From the NCBI GenBank assembly GCA_043718225.1, contig JAYSWD010000100.1, forward strand, positions 1 through 44,726: a stretch of DNA of 44,726 bases, read 5' to 3'. The notes under the pieces were generated by a model. It had not been told where the DNA came from. It ran no database searches and saw nothing but the letters and a program-made list of their open reading frames with translations. Shown in pieces: positions 3,755 through 43,009 of this stretch (positions are counted from its first letter, which is position 1; every line of letters begins with the position of its first letter). The DNA comes from Candidatus Omnitrophota bacterium. Its GTDB lineage: Bacteria > Omnitrophota > Omnitrophia > Omnitrophales > Aquincolibacteriaceae. Position numbers and translations under genes: made by a program.

Positions 3755-4765
3755 ATGAACCACGAGCCACGAGTCACGAATCACACCGCTGCTTTTCTTT
3801 GTCTTTGGTCTATGGTCTTTTGTCTTTTTTCAACTCCTGCGCAGGCAAAGCCGGAATTGCTCGACCGGCTTGTGGCGGTCGTGAACGATGATGTGATAAA
3901 TCAAAGCGAAGTTGATGGGCTGCTGCGCCCGCTTTATGAACAGTATTCGCGTGAATACAGCGGTGAAACAGTGATGAAAATGCTCGCGGGGGCGCAGGAG
4001 AAAATTCTGAGCCAGCTGATCGAAGACAGGCTTGTTTATCAAGAGGCCGTGAAGAAAAAAATAGAAGTGTCTGAAAGCGATATTGAAAAAGAAATGAATT
4101 TTTTTAAACAGCGTTTCGGAAGTTCGGTTGAATTGGAAAAAGCGCTCAAAAGCGAGAACGCAAGCGTAGCGGATTTGAAGGACCGCCTTAAAAAACAGGC
4201 GCTGATCCGAAAACTGCATGAAAGTGAAATCCGCTCAAAAACCATTGTTTCTCCTAAAGAACAGGAAGCTTATTATGCGGAACATAAAGACGAGTTCGCG
4301 GCGCAAGAGCAGGCGAAGATCAAGTCGCTAACGATAAAAAAGAGCGAGGAAACCCGCGAGAAAGGCATGGCGGACGAAGCCGCCCAGGCACGTTTAGCGG
4401 CTTTGCGCGACAGAATTTTAAAAGGCGAGGACTTTGATAAATTAACTGCGGAATCTTCCGAAGACAAGCATTCCGATGCAGAGGGAAAAGGAAATTGGAT
4501 TTTGCGAGGACAGATGATTCCGGCGGTGGACGAAATTATTTTTAAAACTAAAGCCGGGGAATTAACTGATGTAATTGAGACGCCGGTTGGCTACCATGTT
4601 TTTAAAGTGATCGAGCGCCAGGATCCCCTTCAGAAATCATACGAACAGGTACGTGACCAGATTTATGAGATTTTGTTCCGCAAAAAAAGCGAGGACCGTT
4701 TTACGATCTGGATGGATGGACTGAAGAAGAACGCGTACATCTCCATTAAAGGTAAACGTATTTGA
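3755..4765 (+). CDS. surA: SurA/PpiC-type peptidyl-prolyl isomerase / periplasmic chaperone (signal peptide)
   Basis: Signal peptide '...FLCLWSMVFCLFSTPAQA|KPE'. SurA N-domain-like region, then a parvulin motif 'TPVGYHVFKVIER'. The gene sits directly upstream of pdxA-ksgA, the classic surA-pdxA-ksgA order. Confidence 0.65.
   Translation: MNHEPRVTNHTAAFLCLWSMVFCLFSTPAQAKPELLDRLVAVVNDDVINQSEVDGLLRPLYEQYSREYSGETVMKMLAGAQEKILSQLIEDRLVYQEAVKKKIEVSESDIEKEMNFFKQRFGSSVELEKALKSENASVADLKDRLKKQALIRKLHESEIRSKTIVSPKEQEAYYAEHKDEFAAQEQAKIKSLTIKKSEETREKGMADEAAQARLAALRDRILKGEDFDKLTAESSEDKHSDAEGKGNWILRGQMIPAVDEIIFKTKAGELTDVIETPVGYHVFKVIERQDPLQKSYEQVRDQIYEILFRKKSEDRFTIWMDGLKKNAYISIKGKRI
3760..3787 (+). repeat. 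Tandem heptamer run (CCACGAG/CCACGAG/TCACGAA/TCACACC) inside the surA 5' end
   Basis: Read directly: accacgagccacgagtcacgaatcacacc. It encodes the n-region 'HEPRVTNH' of the signal peptide. It shares TCACGAATCAC with the repeat at 29825-29859. Confidence 0.6.
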
Positions 4766-6697: not shown

Positions 6698-7689
6698 AAA
6701 CAGCCTCAATTTTAGATGAAATTTACGCCCCTATAGCGGGCCCTGTTAAAAACGTTCCCGGCCAAATTTTAAAAATTCTCGAATCATCCAATCCGCTGAT
6801 TCAAGATATTTTCCGGCATTTTTTTCAGGCGCAGGGGAAGATGCTGCGCCCTGCGATGACCTTTTTGGGGGCGGCGGTGGCGCGGCCTTCTTTTGAAATA
6901 AATGATAATGAAAAGCTGCTCAATCTCGCCGCGGCATTTGAAATTTTCCATGCCGCGACTTTGATTCACGACGATATCATTGACCGCGCGGAATTGCGGC
7001 GCGGCCTGGTGTCGGTCAATGCTCAATGGGGTTCGCCCGTCGCCGTGTTAGCGGGAGATTTTTTGCATGACCGCGCGCTGGTCACCATTTTTGAAAACAG
7101 TCACTCCGACATCATGCGCCTGTTTTTAAAAACCGCCGGCATTGTCTGTGACGGCGAAATTCACGAACTGCGGCGGGTTAGATTTTATGACTTAACGGAA
7201 GCGGAGTATTTTGAAATCATTTATAAAAAGACCGCCTCACTTCTGGCCTGTGTCTTGGAATCGGGTGCGCGTACTGCCGGCGCTACAGAAAGCGAAGCGC
7301 GGGCACTTGCGGAATTCGGGCGGCATTTTGGAAATGCCTTCCAAATGATCGATGATTGCCTTGATTTTACGGCGAATCAGGTTGAACTTGGAAAAACACT
7401 GGGGACGGATTTAGCCGCGGGTGTTTTGACTTTACCGCTGATTCGTTTGCTTGAAACCCGGCCTGATTTAAGACCGCAAATTTTAAATTTAATCGAGCAC
7501 AGCGCGTCGCGTGAAAATCTCAATCAATTAACCCGGCTGATTTTTGAAAATGGCGCGTTGGATTATGTTTTTCAGCGCGCGCGTGAATCAACCCAGCGCG
7601 CACTTTTGTCATTATCCGTTTTTCCCGATTCTGCTGCCCGTCAAAGCCTTGAAAAACTCGCGGGTTACATTCTTGAACGCACTAAATAG
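6694..7689 (+). CDS. ispB: All-trans polyprenyl diphosphate synthase (IspB-like)
   Basis: First DDxxD motif 'LIHDDIIDRAELRRG' and second 'FQMIDDCLDF'. ATGA overlap with rsmA. Confidence 0.75.
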   Translation: MKTASILDEIYAPIAGPVKNVPGQILKILESSNPLIQDIFRHFFQAQGKMLRPAMTFLGAAVARPSFEINDNEKLLNLAAAFEIFHAATLIHDDIIDRAELRRGLVSVNAQWGSPVAVLAGDFLHDRALVTIFENSHSDIMRLFLKTAGIVCDGEIHELRRVRFYDLTEAEYFEIIYKKTASLLACVLESGARTAGATESEARALAEFGRHFGNAFQMIDDCLDFTANQVELGKTLGTDLAAGVLTLPLIRLLETRPDLRPQILNLIEHSASRENLNQLTRLIFENGALDYVFQRARESTQRALLSLSVFPDSAARQSLEKLAGYILERTK

Positions 7690-7773
7690 TGACAGGTGAC
7701 AAGTGACGAGTGACCGGCAATCAAAAGTTAATGCGGCCATTTTTCTTGTCACCAGTCACCGGTTACCAGTCAC
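7689..7773. repeat. Inverted array of GTGACNN heptamers (4 direct + 4 inverted) between ispB and rsmI
   Basis: GTGACAG GTGACAA GTGACGA GTGACCGG, then a 27-nt spacer, then CTTGTCAC CAGTCAC CGGTTAC CAGTCAC. This makes an imperfect long hairpin. It starts at the ispB stop codon and ends 3 nt before the rsmI ATG. Confidence 0.6.
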
Positions 7774-7776
7774 TGT

Positions 7777-8526
7777 ATGTTAAGCATTATTTCCACACCG
7801 ATCGGAAATTTGGGGGATATCACTTTCCGCGCGGTGGAGACGCTCAAGAAATGCGATGTGATCGCCTGTGAAGATACGCGCCATACTCTGACGTTGCTTA
7901 AGCATTATCAAATTGAGAAACCGCTTATCAGTCATCACGACCATTCTTCGCCGGATAGCCGCCGTCGCTTGGCCGCGATGCTGCGCGAAGGCAAGCATGT
8001 GGCGCTTGTTTCAGACGGGGGAACGCCGCTTGTCAATGACCCCGGCTTTGAGCTGATGCGTTTTTCCCGCGAATTCAATATCGCGGTTGAAGTTTTGCCC
8101 GGCCCGTGTTCGATTATTTCAGGGCTTGTCTTAAGCGGCCTGGCGGTGGATTCCTTTTCATTTTTCGGATTTCTTCCTCAAAAATCATCGCAGCGCAAAA
8201 AAATATTTACGGATCTTGCGGGAAAAAGAGAAACCTTGATTTTTTTTGAATCACCTTTTCGAATCGAAAAAGCGGTTACGGATGCGCTTGAGATTTTAGG
8301 CGACCGGGAAGCCGCGATAGTGCGCGAAATAACAAAAAAATTCGAAGAGGCTTTGCGCGGGTCCTTAAGTCAATTGGTGAGTGCGCTTCAGAAAAGGCCG
8401 CGAAAAGGCGAAATGGTATTGGTCATTGCCGGTGTGGACCGTAAAAAACTATTCGCGGAAGGTAATTTTGAATCCGCCGAACAAGCGCCGGTGACGGAAG
8501 AGCCAAATTCGGAAGGGAATGAATGA
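7777..8526 (+). CDS. rsmI: 16S rRNA (cytidine1402-2'-O)-methyltransferase
   Basis: 'LSIISTPIGNLGDITFRAVETLKKCDVIACEDTRHT' is the tetrapyrrole-methylase-fold RsmI N-terminus. Confidence 0.85.
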   Translation: MLSIISTPIGNLGDITFRAVETLKKCDVIACEDTRHTLTLLKHYQIEKPLISHHDHSSPDSRRRLAAMLREGKHVALVSDGGTPLVNDPGFELMRFSREFNIAVEVLPGPCSIISGLVLSGLAVDSFSFFGFLPQKSSQRKKIFTDLAGKRETLIFFESPFRIEKAVTDALEILGDREAAIVREITKKFEEALRGSLSQLVSALQKRPRKGEMVLVIAGVDRKKLFAEGNFESAEQAPVTEEPNSEGNE

Positions 8527-13564: not shown

Positions 13565-13849
13565 ATGGATTTTGACATTAATAAAGTAGCCAAATTGTCG
13601 CGTTTGAAGCTGGCGCCCGAAGAAGGGGCTAAGCTGGCGCAGAATTTAAGCGCGATCCTGGATTATGTGAAAAATCTTGAGAAACTGGACACAAAAAATG
13701 TCGAGCCAACGAGCCATGTCCTTAATCTTGAGAATGTTTACCGTCCCGACGAAGTCAAAAAATCTTTGGCGCGCGACAAAGTTTTAAAACACGCGCCCGC
13801 AAGTGACGGGTTTTTCTTCAAAGTTCCCAAAACCGTCACGAGAGAATAA
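13565..13849 (+). CDS. gatC: Asp/Glu-tRNA(Asn/Gln) amidotransferase subunit C
   Basis: 'MDFDINKVAKLSRLKLAPEEGAKLAQNLSAILDYVKNLEKLDTKNVEPTSHVLNLENVYRPDEV' is a canonical GatC of about 94 aa. The listed ORF from 13469 is an upstream extension, and the real start is the ATG at 13565. Confidence 0.8.
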   Translation: MDFDINKVAKLSRLKLAPEEGAKLAQNLSAILDYVKNLEKLDTKNVEPTSHVLNLENVYRPDEVKKSLARDKVLKHAPASDGFFFKVPKTVTRE

Positions 13850-13887
13850 TGACTGATACGACTGACGACCGACGACTAACGACTAAC
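13850..13887 (+). repeat. Tandem heptamer run (ACGACTG/ACGACCG/ACGACTA/ACGACTA) between gatC and gatA
   Basis: Read directly, immediately after the gatC stop codon. Confidence 0.6.
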
Positions 13888-13896: not shown

Positions 13897-13943
13897 CCCA
13901 ACACTCCCGGTGTTGGGAGCAGTCTCCCATCACCGGGAGTGTT
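13897..13943 (+). promoter_or_regulatory. Perfect 13-bp stem-loop with nested inner hairpin between gatC and gatA
   Basis: AACACTCCCGGTG ... CACCGGGAGTGTT. The loop itself folds as TGGGAG-cagt-CTCCCA. GGTTTTTAC begins 6 nt downstream of the stem. Confidence 0.45.
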
Positions 13944-15404: not shown

Positions 15405-15422
15405 ACAAAAATCAAAACTGTA

Positions 15423-15450
15423 GCGATCAGCGATCAGCGATCAGCGGACA
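15423..15450 (+). repeat. Tandem heptamer run (AGCGATC x3 + AGCGGAC) between gatA and gatB
   Basis: tagcgatcagcgatcagcgatcagcggacag, read directly. Confidence 0.6.
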
Positions 15451-15495
15451 GAATAATTCCCTGAACGCTGTACGCCGAACGCTGTGCGCTGTTTT

Positions 15496-18190: not shown

Positions 18191-18258
18191 GGTCTCCAGG
18201 ATTTCACTGAAGTTTCCGTTAATATCTTTTTCTTGCTCTGCTCGCCGAGCAAGAAAAA
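18191..18258 (+). repeat. Roughly 68-nt direct repeat, left copy, flanking the SPFH gene; contains a symmetric hairpin with A/T runs
   Basis: ggtctccaggatttcactgaagtttccgttaatatctttttcttgctctgctcgccgagcaagaaaaaa. The internal structure is TTTTTCTTGCTC-loop-GAGCAAGAAAAAA, which is bidirectional-terminator-like. It is about 85% identical to 19678-19746. Confidence 0.6.
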
Positions 18259-31900: not shown

Positions 31901-34900
31901 GTTTTTCGTCCCGATACGAAAGCATTATCAAATGTGGCTATGTATATGCGTGTGCTGCTTGCGATATGGCGCCATGGTTACGCTGTCGTCGAAAGCCGGG
32001 CTTATTCAGCGGCTGATTTAAGATACGGCATTATTAATCAGCCGTCTATTCTTGCGCAATTGTCTCCGGCCATGGAGGCTCTTTCAGCGGGTAAAATAAC
32101 CGGCAATAAGGATGGGGGTGAAGCTTTATTTTTTACTCCGGAGCAACGGAGCCTATTTCAGCGGGAAGCCCTTCCGTTTATGGCGGAGAAAGGTACCGAT
32201 GAGGAAAACTTGATTGGCGCGGGAGCATTATTACAGAAGTCCGGTTTAAAATTGCGCGATTTGAAAGCTTTATATCAAAAAGCACCGCAGGATATTTTCG
32301 GAGAAGGTGATGAACGTTTTGAAATCTCTATTTTGACTTTGCCCGATGCTGAGCATATTCAGCCCCAATTCAGAAACCGAACACTAGCCGTTTTGAACGT
32401 GTTTTATGAAATTGAAAAAGCGCGATTTATAGAAAGTTCCGATTCCACGGTGGTTTTGCGCCTCCGGCCCTTGAGAAAATTTCCGCTTCCGGTTTCAGAA
32501 CGGCAAGTAGCGCTTCTTCGCCATTTTGGTTTTCAGAATACAACACAGATGTCGGTCGATTCCTGGTCTTGGCGCGCGCAAGAAGATGATCCTTTGCTTG
32601 GATTGGGCCCCTATTACAGCTTTGATTCTCAGCGCCCATTTATCGAGATTATGTTAGCGGAGGAAGTTGCCGTTGCGCTGCGCGCCTGGTTTACCCCGCA
32701 AATAACTTCGCTGCGTTCCGAAATGAGGGTGGAGCTGCAGGGAAGCGAGCCTACTTTTAAAGCGGGGTCTTTACCGCCGGGCTACAAACTTTTGAAATTC
32801 GATTTTACGGAAGAAGATAGGGAAAAGGTTTCAGAACTGTTTTCCGGCATGAAGCAGAATCTTCTCGCGCACCCAGGCCACAACGCACAAAGAAGATTCA
32901 CGAATCATATTGTCAAAAAAGTTTTTGGGCTGGCTGTTGCTCCGAAGCCGGGCGTTGCGCGGCATGCTGTTTATTTTGTGATTACGGATAAAAATCAAAT
33001 CGCGGCGGTTTATTTGCCCGCGTCTCAGCAGGAAGGCCTGGTAAAAGAAATCGCTGCCGGACATATTTTTTTGCCGAAACGAACCACGGAGTTTGGGCCT
33101 GTCAAAAAACATTTAGAGCGTCAGGGAATTGACAAAAAAGACATTTCTTCCTCTGCTGAAAGTTCAGCCGCGTACCTTGAATCCCAAAACCAGTCCAGTT
33201 TCGTTTTTGCTTCCCCCGCACGCTCCGAAATGCGGGAGTTTAAGCATGATAATTTAAACTGGAAAATTGCCGCTGACGAAGAAGTCTTATCGAAGGCTGC
33301 TGTGGATGCGATTGCAAAAGTGCTACTGGCGAAACCCAAAGCTGTTTTTCTTTTACCGGCGGGCAAAACGTCAGTGCGCATGTATGAGATTTTAGCGGAG
33401 CGAGCTAATGAAGAAGAAATCGATTTGACGCCGGCTACGATTTTTATGCTCACGGAGTATCGTGCAGGCAAAACCGCCCGCGCCTTTATTGACGAACATA
33501 TGAACAGCCCCATTGCTAGATTGAAAAGGCCCTCTGCGATTTATGTTTTGGATGGCACGACGAGGGAACCACAGAAAGAGGCGGAACAATACGAAAGAAT
33601 GATAGCCGAAGCAGGCGGTGTGGATCTTGCCGTATTAGAAATCGGTAATCAGGGTGAAATCGGTTTTAACGAAGTGGGCGCGTCTTTTGATTCCCCGGCG
33701 CGCGAAGTTACTTTGTCCGACACTTTACGAGCAGAGCACCAGGTGAGTTCTATGAAAGGGTTTACGGTGGGCATGCGAGTCATTCTTGATTCCAGAAAAA
33801 AAATTCTTTTGATCAGCGGTGCATCCAAAGCCAAAATTGCCGGAAAACTTTTTGGTCAAAAACCGGACCTATCTCTTCCCGCAAGCGTGCTGAAGCAGAG
33901 GGGGAATACAGATGTTTTGATTACAGAAGATGCCGAAATGAACATGGGTTTGCCGGAAAAAATGCAGGGCGCCCCGGGTTTTGAAGTTTATCAAGAAAGA
34001 GTGCATGCCGTGTTGGCGCAGGTTGTTGATCGGTGGATTGAGTCGGATAATAGTTACAAAGCGTATTTAAAAATATTGATCGAACTTGTTAAGAAAAATT
34101 TGAGAGTTGCGCCATTTTATACATTTTCAGAAATTGCGAGCGCGCCCGTGTTTAAGGAAGCAAAAAACATTCATCTTTTGCCTGAAATACTTGGCAATGC
34201 TGAGGTTGGCATGCGCGAAATAAATGTTTTTAAAACCGCTCCAGCATTACCCCCAAGTGATGAGGATCTAGCGGATGCATTGCGCGTCAAACGCGACACC
34301 GAACTTTTGGCTGCAACAACGATTTCGCGCGCGGAACTCGAAAAAGTCAATACTTCACAGGAGCCGTTGGGAATCAGCTTTAGCGGGCGCGAACAAAAAA
34401 TACATGCTGTTTGGTGGGGGCTAACAGAGATTCAACGCTCAGATTTTTCAAATTATTATGGAATCGGTACGCCGGAGACACCGCTTGCTCCGGCTGCATC
34501 GCAAATGGATATTGCAAAAGCACGCGGAAATGTTACGTCGGCGAATGTAGGCGCATCGATAAGAGTAGCAATAAGGAAACTGCGCGCGTTTGACGAACAG
34601 CCAGCTGTGGATGGGGCGCCTGAAGAATTGGGGCTGGCGCTAACTGATTTAATTGCTGAGATTTTGGCTGCTATGCCGGCAGGGACGGAGCTGGATGCGC
34701 AGCTATTAGCACGGCTTAAGAAGGCCGGACCCAAAGATGATCGCACTTGGCTCGAAGTTATTTTATTTAGCCGTCAAAAAGCTCTTTTAAAAATGTATGC
34801 CGACAAGCCGTTTGCAGCGGATGAAAAAGTTTCTCTCAAAGATCTTGTCGATGCTGCGCGAGGGAGTGATTCCGTCGGCAAATCTGTTTTGAAAAAAAGC

Positions 34901-37900
34901 ATCCTAAAATTTGTTGCAGAGAAAGGAATTGCCTGGGATTTGCTGTTTTTAAATGATCCGAATTTTGTGGAAAAAGCGGCTGGACCCTCTGCCGGAAAAG
35001 GATTGCGGGGCATAAGCACGAATCTTAAATGGACGCTTGCTAAGTTTTTAGAGCATGCGGACACGGATCGCGCATCGCTTGAAGAGGCAATAAAAAGCAA
35101 AACGGGAATTTTCGCGAAACCGCATGTTCGCATGTATTTTGGGTTGCGATTTTTGGGAAAAACCGAACGCGAAAATAAGGAAGTTATTGATTACCTTGCC
35201 AGAAGATACAAAGGGCAATATAAAATTGATGATGAATGGGCGCATGATTCCATTAAGCTTGCGAAAACCCAGTTTCATGGCATCAAAGAATTGCCGAAAG
35301 CCGAAACCGCGGCGAAGGAAGTTCCAGCTCCGGCGGCGGCAGAGTTGCAGGCTGACCCAAATCCCGCGGCGCCTCCTATGGAAATAACACCAATTGCGGC
35401 ACCTGATGGAATTCTTCCGGTTGAGGGGGCAGCTGCAGAACATGATGAGCCAGCCGCGGCGCCGCTCACTACTGATGCACCAGCAGGGAATGATTCTGAG
35501 CCAATAGCCGCGATTGCCGCTCCACCCGAATCTTATTCCGTTCTACGCGAGATGATGCAAAGGTCAAAACTTGCTTCGCCGCATCTTGACGAAATTCTCG
35601 CCTTAAGACGCAAAAATTGGATAAGAAAAATTCTGGAATTGGATTTAGTCGGTTATGAAGCGCGGTTAGCAGATTCTGCGCAGAAGGCACAGGCAACGCG
35701 GGAAATTCGAGGAATTATTGTCGAAGCAAAAATTGAGCGTTTGATTGAAAGTCCACATGGCGCGGCCGAAGAGCAAGCACGAGAAGTCGTAATTAAATTG
35801 AAAGAAATGATTCATTGGGAAGATCATGCCGGCGACATTGTTAAAATTGTCGCGCCTGAGCCGAAGCCTCGCGCGCCACAACCTGCTGCCGCGCCCTCTC
35901 CCTTGGCCGCCGCACCTGCTGAGCCGGAACTTCCGCCGGTTGATAGTGCGACAACAAAAGATTTTCAAAGCGACTTGCGTAAATGGCTGAATCTCGCTGA
36001 CCACAACTCTTTGGCACGGTTACTTCAGGATGCGTTTTTGAATCCTGCGGATGAAGTGAAAGTGAGTAAATGGGTGAGAGATAATCCGGATGCCGAAATC
36101 AAACTACGTTATTTGGAAAAACACAGCGCATCCCCGAGACAACAGCGTGAACTTTTTGCCAAGGCCCAAGCTATTTATAAAAGGTCCGATTACCCCCTTC
36201 TCGATCAGTTAAACGCGTTGAAATCAGAATTAGACGCTTTAATTGTGGATGCTAAAAGAACGGGCGCAGATTTAAACCCACTACTCAATTGGATGGGAAC
36301 AAAAGGTGCTGGGTTTAAACACAATGCGGACTATTTAGCAGGCAAAGGCTTTCCAGTTCGAGAGCATTTAGAAGCTCATGCTAACGCTGAAGATTTGTTT
36401 GTCGGCCGTTCCGAAATGCGAGAAATATTAATAGAAGCAGTCTCTCTCGACCCCATCGTTTTAGACGACGGCCGGGAAATTCAAATGTTTGCGATTGATC
36501 CGAACGATGATCTTAATTGGAACGCGATACGCGAAGAAGGGGGATTGAGTGACGTTATTGATGAATTAATACCCGAAGACTTTCCGTCACCCTCACTTCT
36601 TTTTACTGAGATACAATTTCGTCTTGGAATATTGGATGGCCGTCTTGTTTTGATAGATGATGTGGATGGTCATGAACACAGAGGATCAACGACTCATAGA
36701 GGGATGGCTTTGGGTTTAAACGGTGAAAAGGCACAAATAGAAGCTGCCACGCGAGGCGCGCAGCTCACAATAATCGATCTTCCCGCAATCGAGCTTCCAG
36801 TGCGCATTGGTACCCCGGCTGCTGCTGGCGGGTACACTCCGATTACCTTTGAAGTTTCTAAGGCCCGCTCCGAATTCCGTTTCGCGCCGATGGCCACTTT
36901 TTCCGTGCTAGCAAAAAAAATTAGAGGCATCGATCCTTTTTATGCGGTCTTATTAGGTTTAGTTGGAGTGATTTTTTGGTTGAATGATCACAATTGGGGC
37001 GGTGCGGGAGTAATCGTCGCGCTTTTACTTCTTATAGCTAGAAAAGCAGGTGACAGAAAATTGCCGGATCAAACAAAAGAGCTGCTGGCAAATATTTTTT
37101 GGGAAATAAACGCTCGCAATATAAAAACAATTGTCTTTTATGTTAATGGGAACAAACGCGCGCACCAAATTGAGGTTGATCGGGATTTTGAACCGATTCT
37201 CAGGAAATCAATCCGTGAGGTTTTGGCACTTGCCACAAACAATGGGAACAATGGAATTGCCTGGGATTTCCCTGCCCCTGACGTGCGAGATTCCACTATT
37301 TTAACGGTAAACGTTTCCACTTCGCGCTCCGAAATGCGTACTGCGGATGAAAAAGTTCAAGATTTTATTACGACACTGCGAATGAAGCGGGCTGCCGTTG
37401 ATTTTACGAACAATGACATTCGTATTGCTTTGAATCCGTCCGAAGTCGCAATTGATGAAAGCCGTATTCCTACATTTACGGGACGATCAAAGGAAATTTT
37501 TGATATTTTTTCATTCATTGCTTATCGGCTCGGCTTAACGGTGGATCTTGTGTCTCTGGGTGAGCCTAAGACTGAGGAGCAATGGCTTGTTTTGACATCG
37601 CAACCCTCCGACACTGCCTTCCTGGAAAAATTGAAGACGACAGTCGAAACGCGCTATCCAAATTTGTTGTATAAAAATCAACTCGCGGCATCTGATCAAG
37701 ATTTTTATGCACCAACTAAAAAGCGGCCTTTTCTAGTCGCCCTGATGACTTTATTTGTTTCTATTGGGGGGATGATTTTAAATTTGCCCGCTCTATCTAA
37801 TTGGATGAAAAGCCGGGGTTGGACGAGTGCAAATGATCTTGTTTCAAGCATGCCTTTAATTTTCATTTTTGTGGCTAGCGCGGTTGTTGCGGGTGCTACT

Positions 37901-40900
37901 TACTTCGTCTCAAGTTTCATCGCCCGGAAATTTGCCCAACATCGTTCCGCAAAAAATTTGCGCAAAGCCGAACGTTTAGACGTCGCCAATGAAAAATGGC
38001 CGCACAATTTTAACAAAACACAACGCTCTGAATTACGCGAAGCGCAGCTCCGGCCCATTTTGGAAGGAAGCACGGATGCTTTAACCTGGTTTCAGGCATT
38101 CAGTGAATTTGAGCCCGCACAACCAAGCGACAAAGTGATTGTCACGATTCAGATTGCGCGCGGCATTCGAATGCAAGTCCCGATCTGGCGCGCAGCGCTC
38201 ACCGACCCTGAACTTCAAGAATCCGCTTACCGCTATCTTTCGACCTGGACTTATAATCTTTCCGCGCGATACGGGACTTCGTTTGCTGCGATCGGGACAG
38301 AAGGTACGGCAGAGTTGATTGATGTTGCAAGAATTGAGCATTTGTTAACTCGAGAGAATTTAGCCGCAGTTCATCAAAGCTACGAAGCATCCGGCGGTGT
38401 TAGTTCCTTTGGCATTAGTAATTATGCAAACGGAGGCGAGTCCGTTGAATTTAAAAAACTTTCGGAATTAACAGACGCAGAAAAAGAAGAAAAACCGCTG
38501 AGTTTAAATATCAAATTACGTACGGATGCGCCCGGATCTTATCTAGGCGTTGATATTGGCGGCGGTTCTGCGAAATTTGCTGTAATTCGAAACGGAAAAA
38601 TTTTAGATATTCCCGAAGAATTTCAAAGTCTTCCAACCGTTCTTTTAAATACCGCTAACGTAGAAGTTCAAGAAACGCCCCAACAATATTCCGAACGAAT
38701 CGCAGGGCATATTGAAAAAATTGGGAAAGCGCTTGGTATCAGATTCGACGGTATTGGAATCGATACTCCCGGAGCCAAACATTTGACTGAAAATAAGATG
38801 GTGACACTAGGGCAGCTTCCCGTTGTTAAGAAATGGGACATGGGCGCGGTTAAAGAGTTTGGCCGCTTACTTCCTCTTACTGTTGCGCAGAAACAAGGGC
38901 TGGATTCTGAAAAAGTGATGATTCGCAACGATATGGACGGCGTGCTTCCGGGCGTAGCCTCGGTGCTGCCGCAAATTGTGCCTGAATTTTGGAAAAGAAC
39001 CGGCGGTAATTTCCGTTTCGATTGGATGGGGACGGGGCATGGCAATCAGGACGCGATCGGCGGCCTTCCCATGAATGCGCCAACAGAGGCCGGTCATTTT
39101 GTGCATGATTTTGCACGCCCCGGCGCAAAAGTTTTTGACACCGAAGCTTCTACGAGCATTCCCGGAATGATACTCGATGCAATCACGCAGGTGAGTGGCA
39201 GCAGGAGTCGCTGGGATGAATTACTGCAAGGAAAATTTAAACCATTGGCCGAGGAGATTGCTAAACGTCCAGTTGATGCAAATTATGAAAGAGGAATGAT
39301 TGCTGCGAGGACTTTACGCCGCTTTGCTAACGAGTATGCCGCAAATTTAGCAATCCATTACTGGATGACTCAATCCACGGGGAAGGGCAGTCCGGATGAA
39401 ATTGTTTTTGGCGGCGGAATTGTCCGTAAAGGTAGAGAAGATTATTTTAAAAATTTGATACTTGAAGCGCTTAAAAAATATGATTTGCAGGATAAAATTC
39501 GCATTACGGTCATATCTGATGAGGACCTCAAAAAAGCAAATATGAGCCCGGACAATGCCGGCCCCATCGGAATGGCGATGTTTATTCAAAGCGTTCTCGC
39601 GTCGAACCAAGCCACGACAACGTTAGAGCCCAATCCTATTACTGCAGCCGAATGGGCAGCGGTAAGAAAAGATTTTAAAGTTGATGATGACGCGCGGATA
39701 CCTCTCGCGCTAGCGGGAGTCTCTGAAACGGATGCCCAGAGAATTTACAGTCATCTCTTTCGTTATGATGGGCCGATTCAGCGTGTCATGGCCGCATTAC
39801 ATAAATTGGACCCAAGGCGATTTGACCTTCACCCTATCCTTTTCCTTGTGAATGATGATTTGTCAGACTATGACCCAAATTGGGGGCCAATTGTGCAAAG
39901 AACCCCACTTAAAGTAATTGTCGTTCCTGTCTCGACAGCATTTTTACAGAAAGTGAAAGCTGCACCTGCCGGTACTTTGTCAGAAGCTGAAATGGAGTTG
40001 TATTCCCGCTTTGCGTTTTCACTTACGGTTGCCCGCATGAGCCCCGCTGTGCATATGATTTTAAATACAGAAAACGTCTCGATTTCATTACCGGTGGAAA
40101 TTATTTTGAAAATGGCCTCCTGGGATGCCGCAGCATTGCGCAACTTTGAAGAGGTTCTTGGCTATAAAGTGGATGAGGGACTTGGGCAAAGCAATATTCC
40201 AGCACCCGCTTATTTAGATCCCAATGTTATAGATGCCCTTCGGCAAATGAATCTTGGTGATGGAAGAGCGGATTTCTTAGAGGTAAGCGATGCATTAGCA
40301 GCTTTTGTGAACGCCGAAGAAATTCGAACGGCAATCCGTTCAGGAGCATTGGATCATGCCCGCCAAATATTTTTGGGGCTTAAAGAAACCAAGGGCTGGC
40401 CTATGAATTATCTATTACCGCAGCAAATTGATCCGGCGGGGGTGCTTTATCAAGATGAAATGCATGCTTACCTGGGGATTATGAACCATTTAATTCTCAT
40501 TGAACAGTTTCGTGATGCTTTGCCGGCATTTTACGAAGAACAAATTCGCGCGTTGGAAAACGCGCAGGGCTTTTCTGCCGAAAAAGTCGCGCTTGCACGT
40601 AAGTATTTGGAACAATCGCCGGTATTGCGCGAGATGGCGGTGAAACAGACGGAACTTTCTGTGAGTCATATCACACAAAAATATCTTTTACCGGTGTCTC
40701 GCTTAATCGGGCGTGAAATTTTGCGCGAAAAAATAAGACAACAGCTAAATATGGGCCAGGAAGCGGCAAGTAAACTTGTTTTCACAGGATTGACCGAAGA
40801 ACTTTTCGAACGTGCCGCACAATTAGCGGGTAAACCGACCGCTCAGGATGTTGGAGTAGACCTTTCACATGCGAGCATTAGCGCAAAGCGGAATTCTGGC

Positions 40901-43009
40901 GGCGAGCCAGTTGTCATACCGTTTGCCCAATGGGATGCCACAACTCAGGCTGATTACCGCGAGCTCGCAATCGAAGGTGTTGAATTCGCCAAACGCTCTG
41001 AATTTCGTGTCTCGAACCACCAATCACCAATCACGAACAACGTCAAAGCCCGCTCCGAAATGCGGGAATCAGTCAATTACGAAGAAACTCTCGCGTTGAT
41101 TAGAAGCGCAACGCGAACCAAAGTTGAAAATGTGCCCGATACCAATCTTGAGTTATGGAAGTTTTACGGCGGCGCAAATGGCGATGAGCGTTTAGTTCAA
41201 GTTGAAGTCTTTCCAAAGAAAGGCCGCAGTGTTCAATTTAGCGGAATCAAGGTTTTTGGCCGTGGGGCAGGGGGATATTTGAATGATCCATGGAATGCGG
41301 CCTTGTTTGCTGATTCGCAAGTAGGCGCAAACGGGGAAGTAGCAGGTCTGGTTTCCCAGCATGTCGCCGATCAGCGTAAAGCAAAGTTAATAGCAGCGGC
41401 GCGCAAGAAAATTCAATCCCGTTCCGAAATGCGGGAAGTTGAGGTGGAAGTCAACAAGGTGGCAAGAAATCAAATATTAGCGGCGATTGTTACTGGGCTT
41501 GTTAAGGACGATAAAGGCGGATCTGTTCATCTGACTGTTAATACAGCATCCGTTAAGGCGGAGGAAGAATTAAAAGCGCTTGGCTTTAGTTTTAAACCAG
41601 TTGATGCTTTGCAATGGTTGCGTGAAAGCCTTTCCTCGGTGACAAAAGTTGTTCCCAAGCCCGGACAAATGCAAATTCACGCATTTGTTGGTGAGATCAA
41701 ATTAGTCATACAGTTAACAGAAGAACCTTCTGCGTTCGGCGATGGAGTTCGGCATTCTACTTATTTGCTTCCGATTATTACTCGGGGGCCGCCGGTTCAT
41801 TTTGAGAATCTTTATCCTGCCGAACTTAAAGTTCAAGGTGTTCTTCAAACCGCAGAGGCTCTTCGTGCTTTTTTAACCAACACAGAAGTTGCTGCTTATG
41901 ACGGTAGAATTATTTCCGAAGACGGAGTAGCTGCTGCTCAGCGAGAACAAGAAGTACGCAAGCGGTTAGGAACTAGCGCCACAGCTCTTTTAGAAAAGAT
42001 CCAAGCCATGCAGGCGGTTGTGCAAAGATTGAAACAACTCTTTGAGGGTACTCGGTCCGGCCTTTTAGAATGGACAGAGATTGAACAGCGTACCGCCGGT
42101 TTGAACGGCCAAAAAGATTTACTCGCAGCTGCTGAAGCTTTTCTTTCCAGGGCAAACCGCGTACCCGTGACAGAAAAAATTGAAAGTGTTCGAACTTACG
42201 CCAGCGAGATTCAAGGTTTTCGAACAACACTGAACGCTGCCATTCGCGCGCGCCTTGAAGAGGATCAAAAAGCAGTTGCTGAAAAAATTAACGCGCTTGG
42301 AGTTTCTGCTGTCGACCTTGCGATTCTCGGCGAAGTAAATGTTGATTTGATTACCGCTAAGGTTGCAAAGGATTGGGATTGGGGCAAGCGTTTGCTCGCG
42401 AAAGCTATGACTCTTTCAGCAGCCATTGACGGTCTTTCGCCAAGTTATGATCAATTTTCCACGCGAGCACAAGCGAATAGTTTTCAATACGCAGATTTAG
42501 AAAATAAAATCTTAGCCTTGCGTCAAATGAAAGAGCATTTGGAAAATGGTTTGCTGAACGCGGTGAAAGCCTATACTCCGGTGTCCGCATGGCAGCACAG
42601 TTTGCGTGGGGCCCAAAATTGGGCAAGAACACATCCTCGAAGCACCCGTTTTATTGTTGTGAGCATTGCCGTTTTTATCGGACTTACCGTGTTTTTTATA
42701 ATGACCATTCCTGAGCGCCGGGAAAAAGCCCGAGCTGCCGCGGCTCGCGCACAGGAAGCGGCCGTTTTAAAGCCGATTCGTGATTTTGTGAATGAAACCG
42801 CCGGCAACAAAAGCGAAACCTATTTTTCACAAGAGGTGGAACGCCAGGGTATTAACAATCTGAAATCAGCAGAAATTGCGCGGACGAGCGATCAAGTTGA
42901 TGCTTTTCGCGGAGTTACCTATCAAAATTGGAAAGGATTCGTTTTAAAAGACGGCAGAAACATCAAATTTATGATAATCAATTTTATAAGTTTGGCGGAA
43001 AATATTTAA
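28958..43009 (+). CDS. Giant multi-pass membrane/surface protein (4683 aa) with embedded NagB-like and ROK/ASKHA kinase-like domains
   Basis: Single uninterrupted frame of 14,052 nt. Signal peptide 'FLRATAIVTLVTYIPTNFSYA|GV'. TM clusters near aa 705-790, 2625-2665, 2895-2960 and 4595-4620. Ala/Pro-rich linkers at 35330-35520 and 35860-35940. The RSE(M/F)R motif recurs. The start could be TTG 28958 or ATG 28970. Confidence 0.8.
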   Translation: MKDFMFQKCFGKFLRATAIVTLVTYIPTNFSYAGVTGAAPEISLPAAWQLSQSLALGLPAELGRIESLSPGRKGIIFHLQTAHGHYEAQVKIQKILEQFAGQYGSYPVLLEGAAGRLNAERINFFPKNPERTKAAAHLLAKKALVKGPELYLLDHPSALVQGIENEAAYWDNHHQFTSVLRAREATQTFSEEFDREMEKTAAIFAPALRGFLKRAEQHELGIVSYESWIEELRNAAQKHLKVDLTDAAWQLPWPMLVRFFKIQKISKAWDSQKYEKEKPLFIRDVEKYLTNHKVRITNHELFDRIKQLLDSAGKNVQLPEPETENAFAEMLRYLPRDFDFKTYPNVTRFMGLLILQSELRPAALVSEMQRIEQLVMNQLARDESEKEIGTVFSDYRLLKKTLALQLTPDDFRKIIERTATSVQRAAKMQPSQITERLKALNNQRRAQYSVRGTGYAEPSSNSVHEIKVKYLKELDGLFNLAIEFYQGAKKRDELMIQNTENYLQKNPAKFAVLVTGGFHTDAMRKQFEKEGYAYAVVTPAISGPDEEGYKAYLKNMLQSSTAYSVQRTAQTTSGSVLGANATGTDPHALFNRNQNLESAYGTDILGEATRRSEFRMLVQAARDGNLSLPHRSENRASAEPAEEELPAPRTSAELAQRTTWPTSRISKAAYSAKIEKRRGRSEARDKRPDPAGELVTQDEKRRRAFSNQATNRLNSKTALLVVVFATAFLIFGPLWLYLDSVTTKMAAVDAQKKQYFLDGGPDALGEFKPVVPHTFWDTLVEIWQWVLVAGQYVLAAGIAVVVLKIVSSLYFSFRAMRDARVGYVMLPDSDNLEAAFDRLLWYRDEKHFQVSIRLNGDGEHVLDSQAVSERFFAAIKRALISDYGAGRKNPISASYLFDNAAKKVTLHLKTRRQNPKDRGEFEATNLIEGTFLFTPPWHRRSWITKNLNRLADQMSAAHDEKQTRVIRGMPRSATKQNDMVLVFRPDTKALSNVAMYMRVLLAIWRHGYAVVESRAYSAADLRYGIINQPSILAQLSPAMEALSAGKITGNKDGGEALFFTPEQRSLFQREALPFMAEKGTDEENLIGAGALLQKSGLKLRDLKALYQKAPQDIFGEGDERFEISILTLPDAEHIQPQFRNRTLAVLNVFYEIEKARFIESSDSTVVLRLRPLRKFPLPVSERQVALLRHFGFQNTTQMSVDSWSWRAQEDDPLLGLGPYYSFDSQRPFIEIMLAEEVAVALRAWFTPQITSLRSEMRVELQGSEPTFKAGSLPPGYKLLKFDFTEEDREKVSELFSGMKQNLLAHPGHNAQRRFTNHIVKKVFGLAVAPKPGVARHAVYFVITDKNQIAAVYLPASQQEGLVKEIAAGHIFLPKRTTEFGPVKKHLERQGIDKKDISSSAESSAAYLESQNQSSFVFASPARSEMREFKHDNLNWKIAADEEVLSKAAVDAIAKVLLAKPKAVFLLPAGKTSVRMYEILAERANEEEIDLTPATIFMLTEYRAGKTARAFIDEHMNSPIARLKRPSAIYVLDGTTREPQKEAEQYERMIAEAGGVDLAVLEIGNQGEIGFNEVGASFDSPAREVTLSDTLRAEHQVSSMKGFTVGMRVILDSRKKILLISGASKAKIAGKLFGQKPDLSLPASVLKQRGNTDVLITEDAEMNMGLPEKMQGAPGFEVYQERVHAVLAQVVDRWIESDNSYKAYLKILIELVKKNLRVAPFYTFSEIASAPVFKEAKNIHLLPEILGNAEVGMREINVFKTAPALPPSDEDLADALRVKRDTELLAATTISRAELEKVNTSQEPLGISFSGREQKIHAVWWGLTEIQRSDFSNYYGIGTPETPLAPAASQMDIAKARGNVTSANVGASIRVAIRKLRAFDEQPAVDGAPEELGLALTDLIAEILAAMPAGTELDAQLLARLKKAGPKDDRTWLEVILFSRQKALLKMYADKPFAADEKVSLKDLVDAARGSDSVGKSVLKKSILKFVAEKGIAWDLLFLNDPNFVEKAAGPSAGKGLRGISTNLKWTLAKFLEHADTDRASLEEAIKSKTGIFAKPHVRMYFGLRFLGKTERENKEVIDYLARRYKGQYKIDDEWAHDSIKLAKTQFHGIKELPKAETAAKEVPAPAAAELQADPNPAAPPMEITPIAAPDGILPVEGAAAEHDEPAAAPLTTDAPAGNDSEPIAAIAAPPESYSVLREMMQRSKLASPHLDEILALRRKNWIRKILELDLVGYEARLADSAQKAQATREIRGIIVEAKIERLIESPHGAAEEQAREVVIKLKEMIHWEDHAGDIVKIVAPEPKPRAPQPAAAPSPLAAAPAEPELPPVDSATTKDFQSDLRKWLNLADHNSLARLLQDAFLNPADEVKVSKWVRDNPDAEIKLRYLEKHSASPRQQRELFAKAQAIYKRSDYPLLDQLNALKSELDALIVDAKRTGADLNPLLNWMGTKGAGFKHNADYLAGKGFPVREHLEAHANAEDLFVGRSEMREILIEAVSLDPIVLDDGREIQMFAIDPNDDLNWNAIREEGGLSDVIDELIPEDFPSPSLLFTEIQFRLGILDGRLVLIDDVDGHEHRGSTTHRGMALGLNGEKAQIEAATRGAQLTIIDLPAIELPVRIGTPAAAGGYTPITFEVSKARSEFRFAPMATFSVLAKKIRGIDPFYAVLLGLVGVIFWLNDHNWGGAGVIVALLLLIARKAGDRKLPDQTKELLANIFWEINARNIKTIVFYVNGNKRAHQIEVDRDFEPILRKSIREVLALATNNGNNGIAWDFPAPDVRDSTILTVNVSTSRSEMRTADEKVQDFITTLRMKRAAVDFTNNDIRIALNPSEVAIDESRIPTFTGRSKEIFDIFSFIAYRLGLTVDLVSLGEPKTEEQWLVLTSQPSDTAFLEKLKTTVETRYPNLLYKNQLAASDQDFYAPTKKRPFLVALMTLFVSIGGMILNLPALSNWMKSRGWTSANDLVSSMPLIFIFVASAVVAGATYFVSSFIARKFAQHRSAKNLRKAERLDVANEKWPHNFNKTQRSELREAQLRPILEGSTDALTWFQAFSEFEPAQPSDKVIVTIQIARGIRMQVPIWRAALTDPELQESAYRYLSTWTYNLSARYGTSFAAIGTEGTAELIDVARIEHLLTRENLAAVHQSYEASGGVSSFGISNYANGGESVEFKKLSELTDAEKEEKPLSLNIKLRTDAPGSYLGVDIGGGSAKFAVIRNGKILDIPEEFQSLPTVLLNTANVEVQETPQQYSERIAGHIEKIGKALGIRFDGIGIDTPGAKHLTENKMVTLGQLPVVKKWDMGAVKEFGRLLPLTVAQKQGLDSEKVMIRNDMDGVLPGVASVLPQIVPEFWKRTGGNFRFDWMGTGHGNQDAIGGLPMNAPTEAGHFVHDFARPGAKVFDTEASTSIPGMILDAITQVSGSRSRWDELLQGKFKPLAEEIAKRPVDANYERGMIAARTLRRFANEYAANLAIHYWMTQSTGKGSPDEIVFGGGIVRKGREDYFKNLILEALKKYDLQDKIRITVISDEDLKKANMSPDNAGPIGMAMFIQSVLASNQATTTLEPNPITAAEWAAVRKDFKVDDDARIPLALAGVSETDAQRIYSHLFRYDGPIQRVMAALHKLDPRRFDLHPILFLVNDDLSDYDPNWGPIVQRTPLKVIVVPVSTAFLQKVKAAPAGTLSEAEMELYSRFAFSLTVARMSPAVHMILNTENVSISLPVEIILKMASWDAAALRNFEEVLGYKVDEGLGQSNIPAPAYLDPNVIDALRQMNLGDGRADFLEVSDALAAFVNAEEIRTAIRSGALDHARQIFLGLKETKGWPMNYLLPQQIDPAGVLYQDEMHAYLGIMNHLILIEQFRDALPAFYEEQIRALENAQGFSAEKVALARKYLEQSPVLREMAVKQTELSVSHITQKYLLPVSRLIGREILREKIRQQLNMGQEAASKLVFTGLTEELFERAAQLAGKPTAQDVGVDLSHASISAKRNSGGEPVVIPFAQWDATTQADYRELAIEGVEFAKRSEFRVSNHQSPITNNVKARSEMRESVNYEETLALIRSATRTKVENVPDTNLELWKFYGGANGDERLVQVEVFPKKGRSVQFSGIKVFGRGAGGYLNDPWNAALFADSQVGANGEVAGLVSQHVADQRKAKLIAAARKKIQSRSEMREVEVEVNKVARNQILAAIVTGLVKDDKGGSVHLTVNTASVKAEEELKALGFSFKPVDALQWLRESLSSVTKVVPKPGQMQIHAFVGEIKLVIQLTEEPSAFGDGVRHSTYLLPIITRGPPVHFENLYPAELKVQGVLQTAEALRAFLTNTEVAAYDGRIISEDGVAAAQREQEVRKRLGTSATALLEKIQAMQAVVQRLKQLFEGTRSGLLEWTEIEQRTAGLNGQKDLLAAAEAFLSRANRVPVTEKIESVRTYASEIQGFRTTLNAAIRARLEEDQKAVAEKINALGVSAVDLAILGEVNVDLITAKVAKDWDWGKRLLAKAMTLSAAIDGLSPSYDQFSTRAQANSFQYADLENKILALRQMKEHLENGLLNAVKAYTPVSAWQHSLRGAQNWARTHPRSTRFIVVSIAVFIGLTVFFIMTIPERREKARAAAARAQEAAVLKPIRDFVNETAGNKSETYFSQEVERQGINNLKSAEIARTSDQVDAFRGVTYQNWKGFVLKDGRNIKFMIINFISLAENI
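29825..30666 (+). repeat. Cluster of four in-frame tandem-heptamer runs in the 5' part of the giant gene
   Basis: 29825-29859: ACGAATC ACAAAGT CCGAATC ACGAATC ACGAATT. 30205-30239: GCGTACA GCGACCA GCGTACA GCGTGCA GCGAAAA. 30303-30324: CGGTACG GGGTACG GGGTACG. 30634-30666: CAGCGTA CAGCGTA CAACGTA. They encode 'TNHKVRITNHE', 'ERTATSVQRAAK', 'YSVRGTGYA' and 'STAYSVQRTAQ'. Confidence 0.6.
33250..33940 (+). other. NagB/glucosamine-6-phosphate deaminase-like domain inside the giant ORF
   Basis: 'AVDAIAKVLLAKPKAVFLLPAGKTSVRMYE...ATIFMLTEYRAG...GGVDLAVLEIGNQGEIGFNEVGASFDSPAREVTLSDTLRAEHQ...GFTVGMRVILDSRKKILLISGASKAKIAGKLFG' follows the NagB order (LGLATGSTP / FNLDEY / [24 protein letters not shown] / SG.GKA). 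Here GEDGH reads GNQGE. Confidence 0.55.
38535..39480 (+). other. ROK/ASKHA sugar-kinase-like domain inside the giant ORF
   Basis: 'SYLGVDIGGGSAKFAVIRNGKIL' is a phosphate-1 motif. 'IRFDGIGIDTPGA' is a phosphate-2 / GIGxPG motif. 'IRNDMDGVLPGV', 'GTGHGNQDAIGG' and 'DEIVFGGGIVRKG' are adenosine-motif-like. No Zn-binding cysteines are present. Confidence 0.5.
41013..41046 (+). repeat. In-frame tandem heptamer run (TCGAACC ACCAATC ACCAATC ACGAACA) in the giant gene
   Basis: Read directly. It encodes 'SNHQSPITNNV' and lies between two RSE(F/M)R motifs at 40988 and 41051. Confidence 0.55.

Follow-up and report, generated by a model that had tools for sequence, protein, structure and literature searches.

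The window, by which we mean the whole 44,726-nt stretch of contig JAYSWD010000100.1 analysed here, carries numerous runs of tandemly repeated heptanucleotides, both between and inside its genes. Its gene content is of the housekeeping type and lies nearly entirely on one strand. Genes for an aminotransferase, an mfd-like helicase, surA, pdxA, ksgA, a polyprenyl synthase, a TP_methylase, purN and a prolyl oligopeptidase are present together with gatCAB, tsaD, an SPFH protein, hisG, ispE, clpX, two ABC permeases, glmU, prs and a giant open reading frame (ORF) of 4683 amino acids. A preliminary description made from the letters of the window had listed nine such runs and likened them to the short tandemly repeated repetitive (STRR) sequences of cyanobacteria, while noting that the gene content was not cyanobacterial. 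The latter agrees with the source, which is a Candidatus Omnitrophota bacterium.

Arrays were detected by Tandem Repeats Finder (TRF) and by a separate lag-autocorrelation scan (score ≥10, periods 4–15). For the window TRF returned 29 rows, 12 of them with period 7, and after removal of duplicates 11 arrays at period 7 compared to 0, 4 and 2 at periods 6, 8 and 9. The autocorrelation scan revealed 8 runs at period 7, one at period 14 and none at every other period, whereas second-order Markov shuffles of the window led to an expectation of only 0.04 period-7 runs. All nine loci listed before were recovered by TRF at the same coordinates or within a few bases, and their designation as STRR-like heptanucleotide arrays stands. 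Three arrays (3798–3828, 7748–7773 and 15463–15489) had been overlooked. A further TRF row of period 7 (27251–27277) is not part of the phenomenon; it encodes DAARRASARRITAV in the conserved Pribosyltran_N domain of an ordinary prs gene. The arrays of the window are collected in Table 1.

Table 1. Heptanucleotide arrays of the window and the hairpin loop between two of them (strand +, forward).
Positions	Strand	Feature	Detection and remarks
3760–3784	+	Array CCACGAG CCACGAG TCACGAA TCAC	TRF 3760–3779 CCACGAG x2.9; SurA codons 2–10 (NHEPRVTNH)
3798–3828	+	Array TTTGTCT/TGGTCT	TRF TTTGTCT x4.4; SurA signal-peptide hydrophobic core (LCLWSMVFCLF)
7688–7714	+	5' hairpin arm GTGACAG GTGACAA GTGACGA GTGAC	TRF AGTGACA x3.9
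7715–7747	+	Hairpin loop, 33 nt	Predicted fold
7748–7773	+	3' hairpin arm GTCACCA GTCACCG GTTACCA GTCAC	TRF GTCACCA x3.7; inverted partner of 7688–7714
13858–13887	+	Solitary array ACGACTG ACGACCG ACGACTA ACGACTA AC	TRF ACGACTA x4.3
15422–15446	+	5' hairpin arm, perfect AGCGATC x3.6, gatA-gatB	TRF, 100% matches
15463–15489	+	3' hairpin arm, reverse complement = CAGCGNN units	TRF period-14 row; inverted partner of 15422–15446
29825–29858	+	Array ACGAATC x4.9 in giant ORF, encodes LTNHKVRITNHE	TRF
30204–30237	+	Array CAGCGNN x4.9 in giant ORF (TATSVQRAA region)	TRF
30304–30323	+	Perfect array GGTACGG x2.9 in giant ORF (VRGTGYA)	TRF, 100% matches
30638–30664	+	Array ACAGCGT x3.9 in giant ORF (TAYSVQRTA)	TRF
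41018–41034	+	Short perfect array CACCAAT x2.4 in giant ORF (NHQSPITN)	TRF score 34; weakest member

For comparison, a search with GatA led to 80 syntenic loci (L001–L080), nearly all labelled Candidatus Omnitrophota; the best GatA match to the window is 94% identical in protein and only 80% in DNA. The sample thus comprises one syntenic region in 81 genomes (the window and the 80 loci, with 1.32 Mb of relatives) and not whole genomes. In the relatives the autocorrelation scan gave 46 runs at period 7 and 18 at period 14 compared to 0–15 at the other periods. By TRF, the closer half of the relatives (L001–L040) contains 85 period-7 arrays (12.2 per 100 kb) against 26 at period 6 and 30 at period 8, whereas the distant half (L041–L080) shows no period-7 excess, with 34 arrays (5.5 per 100 kb) against 39 at period 8. 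Within this region, the excess over periods 6 and 8 that the preliminary description proposed to look for is thus present in the window as well as in its closer relatives. Since the excess is strong in the closer half and absent in the distant one, period-7 arrays are a trait of one Omnitrophota clade and not peculiar to the window. The window is the densest example among the sequences examined (24.6 period-7 arrays per 100 kb by TRF); 150 kb of plasmid alpha of Nostoc PCC 7120, a classical host of STRRs, contained 8.7 per 100 kb and 50 kb of Escherichia coli K-12 none. The 7-nt tandems are over-represented compared to neighbouring periods, dispersed and preferentially intergenic, as is typical of heptameric simple sequence repeats (SSRs) of the STRR type.

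An artefact of assembly or sequencing, or mere chance, can practically be dismissed as the origin of these runs. Eight runs were observed where shuffles predict a small fraction of one, the same architecture is found in dozens of independently assembled metagenome-assembled genomes (MAGs) from different studies and assemblers, and the arrays in coding DNA keep long ORFs open.

The main structural feature of the arrays, inverted pairing, had gone unnoticed in the preliminary description. The characteristic element consists of a purine-rich array of 3–5 heptamers, a short and usually A-rich loop and a complementary pyrimidine-rich array; solitary arrays are present as well. Each unit comprises 5–6 conserved and 1–2 variable positions, and the arms therefore form helices of 5–6 bp with 1x1 or 2x2 mismatches every 7 nt, for which we use the term ladder hairpin. 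Over the whole data set, a reverse-complement partner within 150 nt was found for 30 of the 73 arrays, compared to 0 of 73 in a reversed-sequence control. Across 35 hairpins the helix lengths peak at 5–6 bp, and the internal loops are mainly 1x1 (70) and 2x2 (19). The 5' arm is the more purine-rich one in 30 of 35 hairpins (p = 2e-5), a polarity that is unchanged on reverse-complementing, and the loops on the sense strand contain 162 A against 59 T. Both hairpins of the window are predicted to fold strongly (7684–7782, −36.4 kcal/mol, z −4.65; 15402–15498, −35.5 kcal/mol, z −5.27), with none of 200 shuffles as stable in either case. The units found in the gatA-gatB, gatB-tsaD and gatC-gatA spacers of the relatives vary by genome and include GCGCAAC, GGGACTC, GGAACGN, GTACGGN, GAACCAA, AGGCCCG, CGGATGN, TAAGTGN and others.

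Intergenic DNA harbours 30 of the 73 arrays (41%) in sequence that is only 9% non-coding, and many of the arrays classed as coding are located no more than about 100 nt from the start of an over-extended ORF. Elements are found in operons of co-directional genes, and some extend to the next start codon. Measured at 13 homology-anchored junctions, the distance between the upstream stop codon and the start of the first array has a median of −1 nt; arrays thus often begin inside the stop itself, as with TAG-TGAC in the window and TAAGTGN or TAACGGG in relatives. The window's hairpin at 7688–7773 starts inside the TAG stop (7687–7689) of the polyprenyl synthase gene and ends 3 nt short of the TP_methylase ATG (7777), and the stem of the gatA-gatB hairpin reaches the gatB ATG at 15496. 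Both thus end 0–3 nt from the next ATG, and no Shine-Dalgarno (SD) motif is visible at either. The solitary array at 13858, for which no inverted partner was found, begins 8 nt past the gatC stop codon (13847–13849); the gatC-gatA spacer measures 14 nt in L001 and 6 nt in L002.

This location has consequences for annotation. The longest-ORF start calls run into arrays in the window (15484–15498 and 16919) as well as at the tsaD and gatB starts of relatives. For the window, gatB is called from a GTG at 15484 inside the 3' arm, while the conserved N-terminus MKYEPVIGLE starts at the ATG at 15496. The elements thus mislead start-codon calling, with gatB and tsaD ORFs over-extended into arrays, and automatic annotation can be expected to over-extend N-termini at array-bearing junctions in these genomes.

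The anchoring at stop codons could be taken to mean that the elements are functional cis-acting RNA elements of polycistronic mRNAs, an explanation we consider doubtful. In one version, the hairpin would place the stop beside the next start, and the terminating ribosome would melt the 5' arm and free the start (translational coupling). Alternatively, the hairpins would stabilise 3' ends or be sites of processing, or a protein with a 7-nt footprint, for example a cold-shock-domain protein, would bind to the arrays in single-stranded form. Besides the median start at −1 nt and the short distance of the window hairpins to the next ATG, the recurrence of hairpins at the gatB-tsaD and gatA-gatB junctions of many genomes despite replacement of their sequence, the A-rich loops on the sense strand and the conservation of cores with 1–2 free positions point in this direction. 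For TAACTGA repeats, translational regulation and binding of cold-shock proteins (CSP), S1 or CsrA have been proposed (MacGregor 2015, PMC4679880). The tests for selection on the sense-strand RNA (G.U versus A.C; sense versus antisense energy) gave no signal, however. The sense fold contains 56 G.U pairs and the antisense fold 80, and only 13 of 32 hairpins are more stable on the sense strand. The complementarity of the arms is therefore symmetric with respect to the DNA strands and provides no evidence of selection on the mRNA fold. In scans for intrinsic terminators and promoters the ladder hairpins were not terminator-like, with none scoring as an intrinsic terminator and counts not above those of shuffles, and the Rfam search gave no family match at the gathering score except the tRNA at 22053–22123. 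Further, the closest relatives lack elements at the same junctions. At the ispB-tpm junction (hairpin 7688–7773 in the window) L001–L003 have a 16-nt spacer, with a clear SD motif in L002 and L003. The elements are thus dispensable. SD motifs were found in 1 of 6 array-bearing spacers compared to 11 of 36 others (p = 0.66), a comparison limited to six usable junctions with unreliable start-codon calls. Finally, elements of this kind are also located within genes, and there neither coupling nor termination would be a meaningful role.

These coding copies were investigated in GatB, GatA, SurA and the giant ORF. A presumed surface loop of GatB (FDMPxNG ... GITRAHLEED) measures 20 amino acids in the window and carries in-frame elements in nine genomes, with inserts of 7–23 amino acids. 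The length of each element is divisible by 3 and none contains a stop codon, and consequently they are translated. They comprise perfect hairpins with A-rich loops (L006, L034), heptamer ladders (L012, L016, L020), an array with an A-rich tract (L013) and solitary arrays (L010, L023, L029). The insert differs between sister taxa and is patchy on a neighbour-joining tree; as this tree carries no support values, recurrent gain or loss is based on the contrasts between sister pairs and on a trio of genomes about 88% identical to one another (L012, L023 and L024, see below). In the distant genomes L048 (10962–11078) and L071 (1652–1762) the same GatB loop holds large G/C-rich palindromes of the CCCCTCACCC...GGGTGAGGGG type, in frame and not built from heptamers (−50 and −76 kcal/mol). 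The loop seems to be a hot spot of palindromic elements across the phylum.

Arrays also occur in the GatA linker of L008, L035 and L017 and directly after the ATG of surA in the window and in L001, where they lengthen the signal peptide with differing units. Typical SurA orthologues start with MKK and a hydrophobic core; in the window, the n-region is extended by the array at 3760–3784. At its place L001 has the array AGACCAG x4. There one ladder hairpin (L001 212–299, −31.7 kcal/mol) encodes the charged n-region with one arm and the hydrophobic core with the other. The window retains the counterpart of the 3' arm (3798–3828), with a different and non-pairing 5' array, and no significant fold was obtained for 3745–3835 (z +0.74).

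The giant ORF (28958–43009, + strand) contains a Glucosamine_iso/6-phosphogluconolactonase-like domain at amino acids 1445–1650 as its only Pfam domain. Its N-terminal ~500 amino acids are those of an uncharacterised protein family in which a GGFH motif is invariant (VLVTGGFHTD in the window); the members found are 420–720 amino acids long, at most 28% identical and, where named, from Omnitrophota. No close orthologues of the 5' part were obtained: the matches of the protein search reach at most 28% identity, and a metagenome scan was without relatives. Active remodelling of this 5' end, as put forward in the preliminary description, is a conjecture only. In the alignment of homologues (20–27% identical) the peptide ERTATSV, encoded by the array at 30204, is an exact insert of 7 amino acids (21 nt) compared to all seven homologues, so that at least one array of this gene is an insert that the homologues lack. 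The region of the 29825 array is 7 amino acids longer than in homologue P0001, and both this array and that at 30304 lie in indel regions of the alignment. No significant structure was predicted for the coding arrays of the window, in surA or in the giant gene (29825, z +2.17; pairing of 30204 with 30304 in the minimum-energy fold not better than in shuffles, z −1.19). Translation bears out the peptide repeats reported earlier, TATSVQRAA and TAYSVQRTA as well as TNH...TNH. The arrays at 30204 and 30638 share both family and reading phase. That the copies would stay in frame by coming in 21- or 35-nt units does not hold, as 35 is not a multiple of 3 and the measurable net insert is 21 nt. Altogether, the sites at which in-frame copies persist are permissive ones: the loop of GatB, the linker of GatA, the signal peptide of SurA and, in the giant gene, the fast-evolving 5' part.

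Since 7 is not a multiple of 3, gain or loss of a single unit would shift the frame, and the arrays might be contingency loci switching a giant surface-type protein on and off. Four arrays lie in the first 1.7 kb of the 4683-amino-acid ORF, and enrichment of SSRs near ORF N-termini is linked to frameshift phase variation in work cited by PMC4692102. We nevertheless regard this as highly improbable: the arrays are short (2.4–4.9 units), mostly imperfect and well below typical phase-variable tracts, most of them are intergenic and lie between housekeeping genes, and comparable arrays occur in the essential single-copy genes gatB, gatA and surA, where switching off would be lethal.

More information on the origin of the arrays comes from the comparison of their units. 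Among pairs of arrays that lie in one genome at a distance of more than 300 nt, 6.0% have identical units (rotation and strand ignored); the share is 1.0% for between-genome pairs and 0.08% for random pairs. Such a recurrence far above random shows that the units are not random local sequence. Within the window, TCACGAA is common to the 29825 array and the surA array, and the 11-mer TCACGAATCAC occurs in exactly two copies, at 3774 and 29844, with 0.02 expected; the sharing of sequence between surA and the giant gene noted in the preliminary description is thereby verified. The GGTACGG unit at 30304 belongs to a GTACGGN/CCGTACN family that is also present in L011, L012, L021 and L029. The trio L012, L023 and L024 (~88.5% identical to one another) is especially informative. 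Their coding flanks can be aligned normally, as can the hairpin of a neighbouring spacer and a small conserved ORF, whereas the elements right after the gatB stop and the small-ORF stop belong to wholly different families, and the families swapped in this way recur at other sites in sister genomes. Perfect arrays (AGCGATC x3.6, GGTACGG x2.9, CGTTCCC x4.5, GGGACTC x4) in lineages with otherwise saturated spacers point towards recent 7-nt expansion or homogenisation. Taken together, unit recurrence, family swaps and perfect arrays argue for cassette-like turnover from a shared repertoire combined with local slippage, and against gradual divergence. The earlier suggestion of slippage or a small insertion element is thus close to the data. 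Probably both are involved, the perfect arrays reflecting 7-nt expansion and the family swaps and recurrence reflecting cassettes.

Slippage in situ might also be the only process, with a replication or repair property of the clade duplicating local 7-nt seeds wherever they are tolerated and nothing moving between sites. Inverted pairs would then arise by template switching at existing palindromes, and the footprint of the polymerase active site might be the cause of the period. This would account for the strict specificity for period 7 and the short perfect arrays, it agrees with a published slippage hypothesis for heptameric SSRs, which as cited in PMC4692102 concerns the polymerase footprint, and it needs neither target-site duplications nor a constant full-length consensus, neither of which was seen. 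The non-heptamer palindromes in the GatB loop of distant genomes could act as seeds. We consider it unlikely, as identical units at separate loci are about 75 times more frequent than random within a genome and about 12 times between genomes, and as a family may sit at one junction in one genome and at another in its sister genome, with a different family at the orthologous junction. Moreover, the variable positions of the two arms face each other as mismatches, whereas template switching would copy complements.

In the reading we prefer, a limited repertoire of unit families would be dispersed and exchanged among sites as small cassette-like palindromic elements, comparable to repetitive extragenic palindromic (REP) sequences, to miniature inverted-repeat transposable elements (MITEs) or to the GGGAATC pairs of Xanthomonas. 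Replication slippage biased to period 7 would then expand, contract and homogenise their arms. The elements would probably be selfish or near-neutral DNA filtered by where it is tolerated, and any effect as mRNA hairpins would be secondary. To this combination of dispersed, selfish or near-neutral palindromic families with period-7 slippage, filtered by tolerance, we assign about an even chance.

Several observations weigh against it. The ladder elements are not associated with any transposition machinery, members of one family have just the heptamer core in common and differ in loops and unit numbers, and neither target-site duplications nor a full-length consensus were seen. The GatB elements replace about 29 nt and are not simple insertions. 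With only the core shared, no target-site duplications and a replacement of this size, the elements are not classical MITE copies. The individual mutational steps escape observation, as the closest pair of array-bearing genomes is only about 88% identical, and all conclusions are drawn from the one syntenic region. Mismatches within arrays concentrate at a single phase of the unit (37 of 52; permutation maximum 34), and some arrays show three or four different bases at one variable position. Such one-phase variation hints at a constraint on the core and hence at function; it is taken as suggestive only, since the detector favours arrays whose mismatches share a phase. Likewise, stop-codon anchoring, A-rich sense loops and purine-first polarity could reflect selection at the level of RNA or translation.

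A transposase-like gene of the window was considered as driver of the arrays seen here and rejected. It is an HUH/Y1 ORF on the minus strand (28006–28659) resembling REP-associated tyrosine transposases (RAYTs), with the motifs PTHFHIAVE (HUH) and RYIHLNPV (Tyr). It matches Pfam Y1_Tnp with E 2.9e-5 and NCBIfam REP_Tyr_transpos with E 3.4e-15 and 56 bits, which is below the 80-bit cutoff. Near-identical hairpins with perfect 21-bp stems flank it at 27987–28040 and 28713–28766, as is classic for a RAYT with its REP. The REP lacks heptamer periodicity and has no other copy in the window or in 84 loci, and with its own non-heptamer REP found nowhere else in the data the gene does not qualify. In addition, tblastn found no RAYT gene in the loci of the 80 relatives, and no RAYT gene was found to adjoin a ladder element. 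Other RAYT copies may lie in the genome outside the sampled region.

A further idea, which we rate as a long shot, is a distinct class of elements made by a dedicated, clade-specific activity that lays down tandem templated units at hairpins close to stop codons. The unit might consist of a core and an untemplated or wobble position, copied from a small set of 7-nt templates, and the activity might be a Y1/HUH-type or reverse-transcriptase-like enzyme. If true, this would explain the strict period, the genome-specific families, the hypervariable phase and the cassette-like replacement at fixed sites. The hairpins might then have been co-opted for stop-start translational coupling in SD-poor operons.

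Palindromes that are not built from heptamers were found as well. One lies just past the 13858 array (13900–13943), with 20-nt arms that are 95% complementary (AACACTCCCGGTGTTGGGAG / CTCCCATCACCGGGAGTGTT), and the gatC-gatA spacers of L005 and L029 hold repeats of the GTCATCGCGAG/GTCATTGCGA type. Such palindromes come and go among the spacers of the relatives (L001 pop-gatC; L005, L020 and L029 gatC-gatA). In general, hairpin elements are abundant between the genes of this clade. The SPFH/Band-7 gene (18318–19649) is bracketed by two related imperfect palindromes, each about 66 nt long (18210–18275 and 19694–19766; core CTTTTTCTTGCTCTGC / GCCGAGCAAGAAAAA). No SPFH match was obtained in L001–L003; hisG follows directly after tsaD in L002 and L003, and L001 has one similar copy of the palindrome in a 573-nt tsaD-hisG spacer. 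On these grounds the SPFH gene may be an insertion bounded by the two palindromes.

The neighbourhood showed three further features. An unannotated ORF in the hisG-ispE spacer (20959–21057, + strand) encodes a Lys/Arg-rich peptide of 32 amino acids, MPWAKKQRKKKMNKHKRKKKLRKNRHKKKDWS, with a GGAG-type motif upstream, and is kept almost residue for residue in L001–L003, L012, L023 and L024. The product may be a small protein of ribosomal type or one that binds nucleic acids. In the ispE-clpX interval, the tRNA gene (22053–22123) has opposite orientations in the window (minus strand) and in L001–L003 (plus strand) and is thus locally inverted; L001 and L002 contain one or two extra partial copies of its 5' half, resembling remnants of integration sites. 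Finally, an uncharacterised conserved reading frame lies directly upstream of clpX in the window and in L001–L003.

For genome analysis, the elements inflate the apparent variation in protein length, and MAG assemblies are likely to break at them. With its many unit families per genome, its regular ladder hairpins at stop codons and its translated copies in essential genes such as gatB, an uncultured phylum of small, compact genomes and higher repeat density would be a useful comparative system. The strong synteny of the operons allows each site to be scored for gain, loss and replacement across hundreds of MAGs, and such scoring could separate slippage, mobility and selection.

Heptamer repeats in Omnitrophota are not mentioned in the literature searched. 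Of the units described from other organisms, the STRR1–3 units are CCCCAGT, TTGGTCA and CAACAGT. No tandem copies of these, or of TAACTGA, GGGAATC or GGGGAYT, were present in 1.36 Mb. The Omnitrophota arrays are therefore separate families and not transferred copies. Like the cyanobacterial STRRs they are dispersed, mainly intergenic and of several families per genome, but they belong to another phylum and lack STRR1–3 units in tandem. The Nostoc plasmid arrays include one inverted pair (L083 45681/45834); compared to them, the density in the window is about three times higher, and inverted pairs and in-frame coding copies are much more prominent. For Calothrix PCC 7601 three STRR heptamers are on record, as cited in PMC4692102, and the Nostoc heptamer is given as GGGGA(C/T)T (PMC4692102). 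The assumption that such repeats are specifically cyanobacterial has to be abandoned. Over-representation of heptameric SSRs has been reported since 2007 and is found in many bacteria, for instance Xanthomonas (PMC4692102), and Beggiatoaceae have heptamer repeats too (PMC4679880).

The (GGGANTN)n arrays of Xanthomonas mostly have four units, are 89–93% intergenic and lie near the upstream ORF (Rehm et al. 2015, PMC4692102). Their average distance from its end is 28 nt, mostly between co-directional genes, and 70–75 convergent inverted pairs per genome have stem-loop or cruciform potential; length and sequence vary between close species, and a link to particular gene functions was not observed (PMC4692102). 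The Omnitrophota elements share with them the heptamer core with variable positions, the short arrays, the intergenic bias, the location between co-directional genes, the variability among close relatives, the lack of a link to any particular gene function and the convergent inverted pairs near ORF 3' ends. One family, GGGACTC (L008, L023, L029), fits the GGGANTN consensus and is the only match to a published one. In contrast, an Omnitrophota genome has many unrelated unit families instead of one dominant G-rich unit, and most units, including all of the window, are unable to form G-quadruplexes, with no G3 tract in the window units. The arrays touch the stop codon (median −1 nt) and do not keep a distance of 28 nt on average, a sizeable fraction is translated in frame in housekeeping genes, and families are replaced at orthologous sites.

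TAACTGA direct repeats of Beggiatoaceae, some Cyanobacteria and Bacteroidetes lie beside start codons in spacers poor in ribosome-binding sites (MacGregor 2015, PMC4679880). They form arrays of 2–6 copies, almost all intergenic and some overlapping the end of the upstream ORF, with a single unit that carries stop codons in all frames, one inverted set among 170 and predicted unstructured RNA (PMC4679880). The Omnitrophota arrays resemble them in copy number, in the intergenic placement near start codons that lack a canonical ribosome-binding site and in the overlap of some with the upstream ORF, the agreement in position being partial. Many units, frequent inverted pairs and strong predicted structure set the Omnitrophota arrays apart. 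With REP sequences and REPINs they have in common that short palindromes are dispersed past gene 3' ends in genome-specific families, but throughout the sampled region ladder copies share a 7-nt core and not a full-length consensus. They differ from MITEs by the lack of target-site duplications and by the replacement of about 29 nt in GatB instead of a clean insertion. Rickettsia palindromic elements, of about 100–150 bp with a family-wide consensus and no heptamer periodicity, lie in frame in coding genes, including essential ones, and are translated as extra surface segments. The Omnitrophota palindromes resemble them in being translated in frame within essential genes, but measure 50–90 nt, are built from heptamers and are mostly intercistronic. 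Overall, Omnitrophota adds a new phylum to a known, unexplained type of repeat of cyanobacteria and Xanthomonas and does not represent a categorically new one. It is marked by many families per genome, anchoring at stop codons, regular ladders and frequent translated copies in essential genes.

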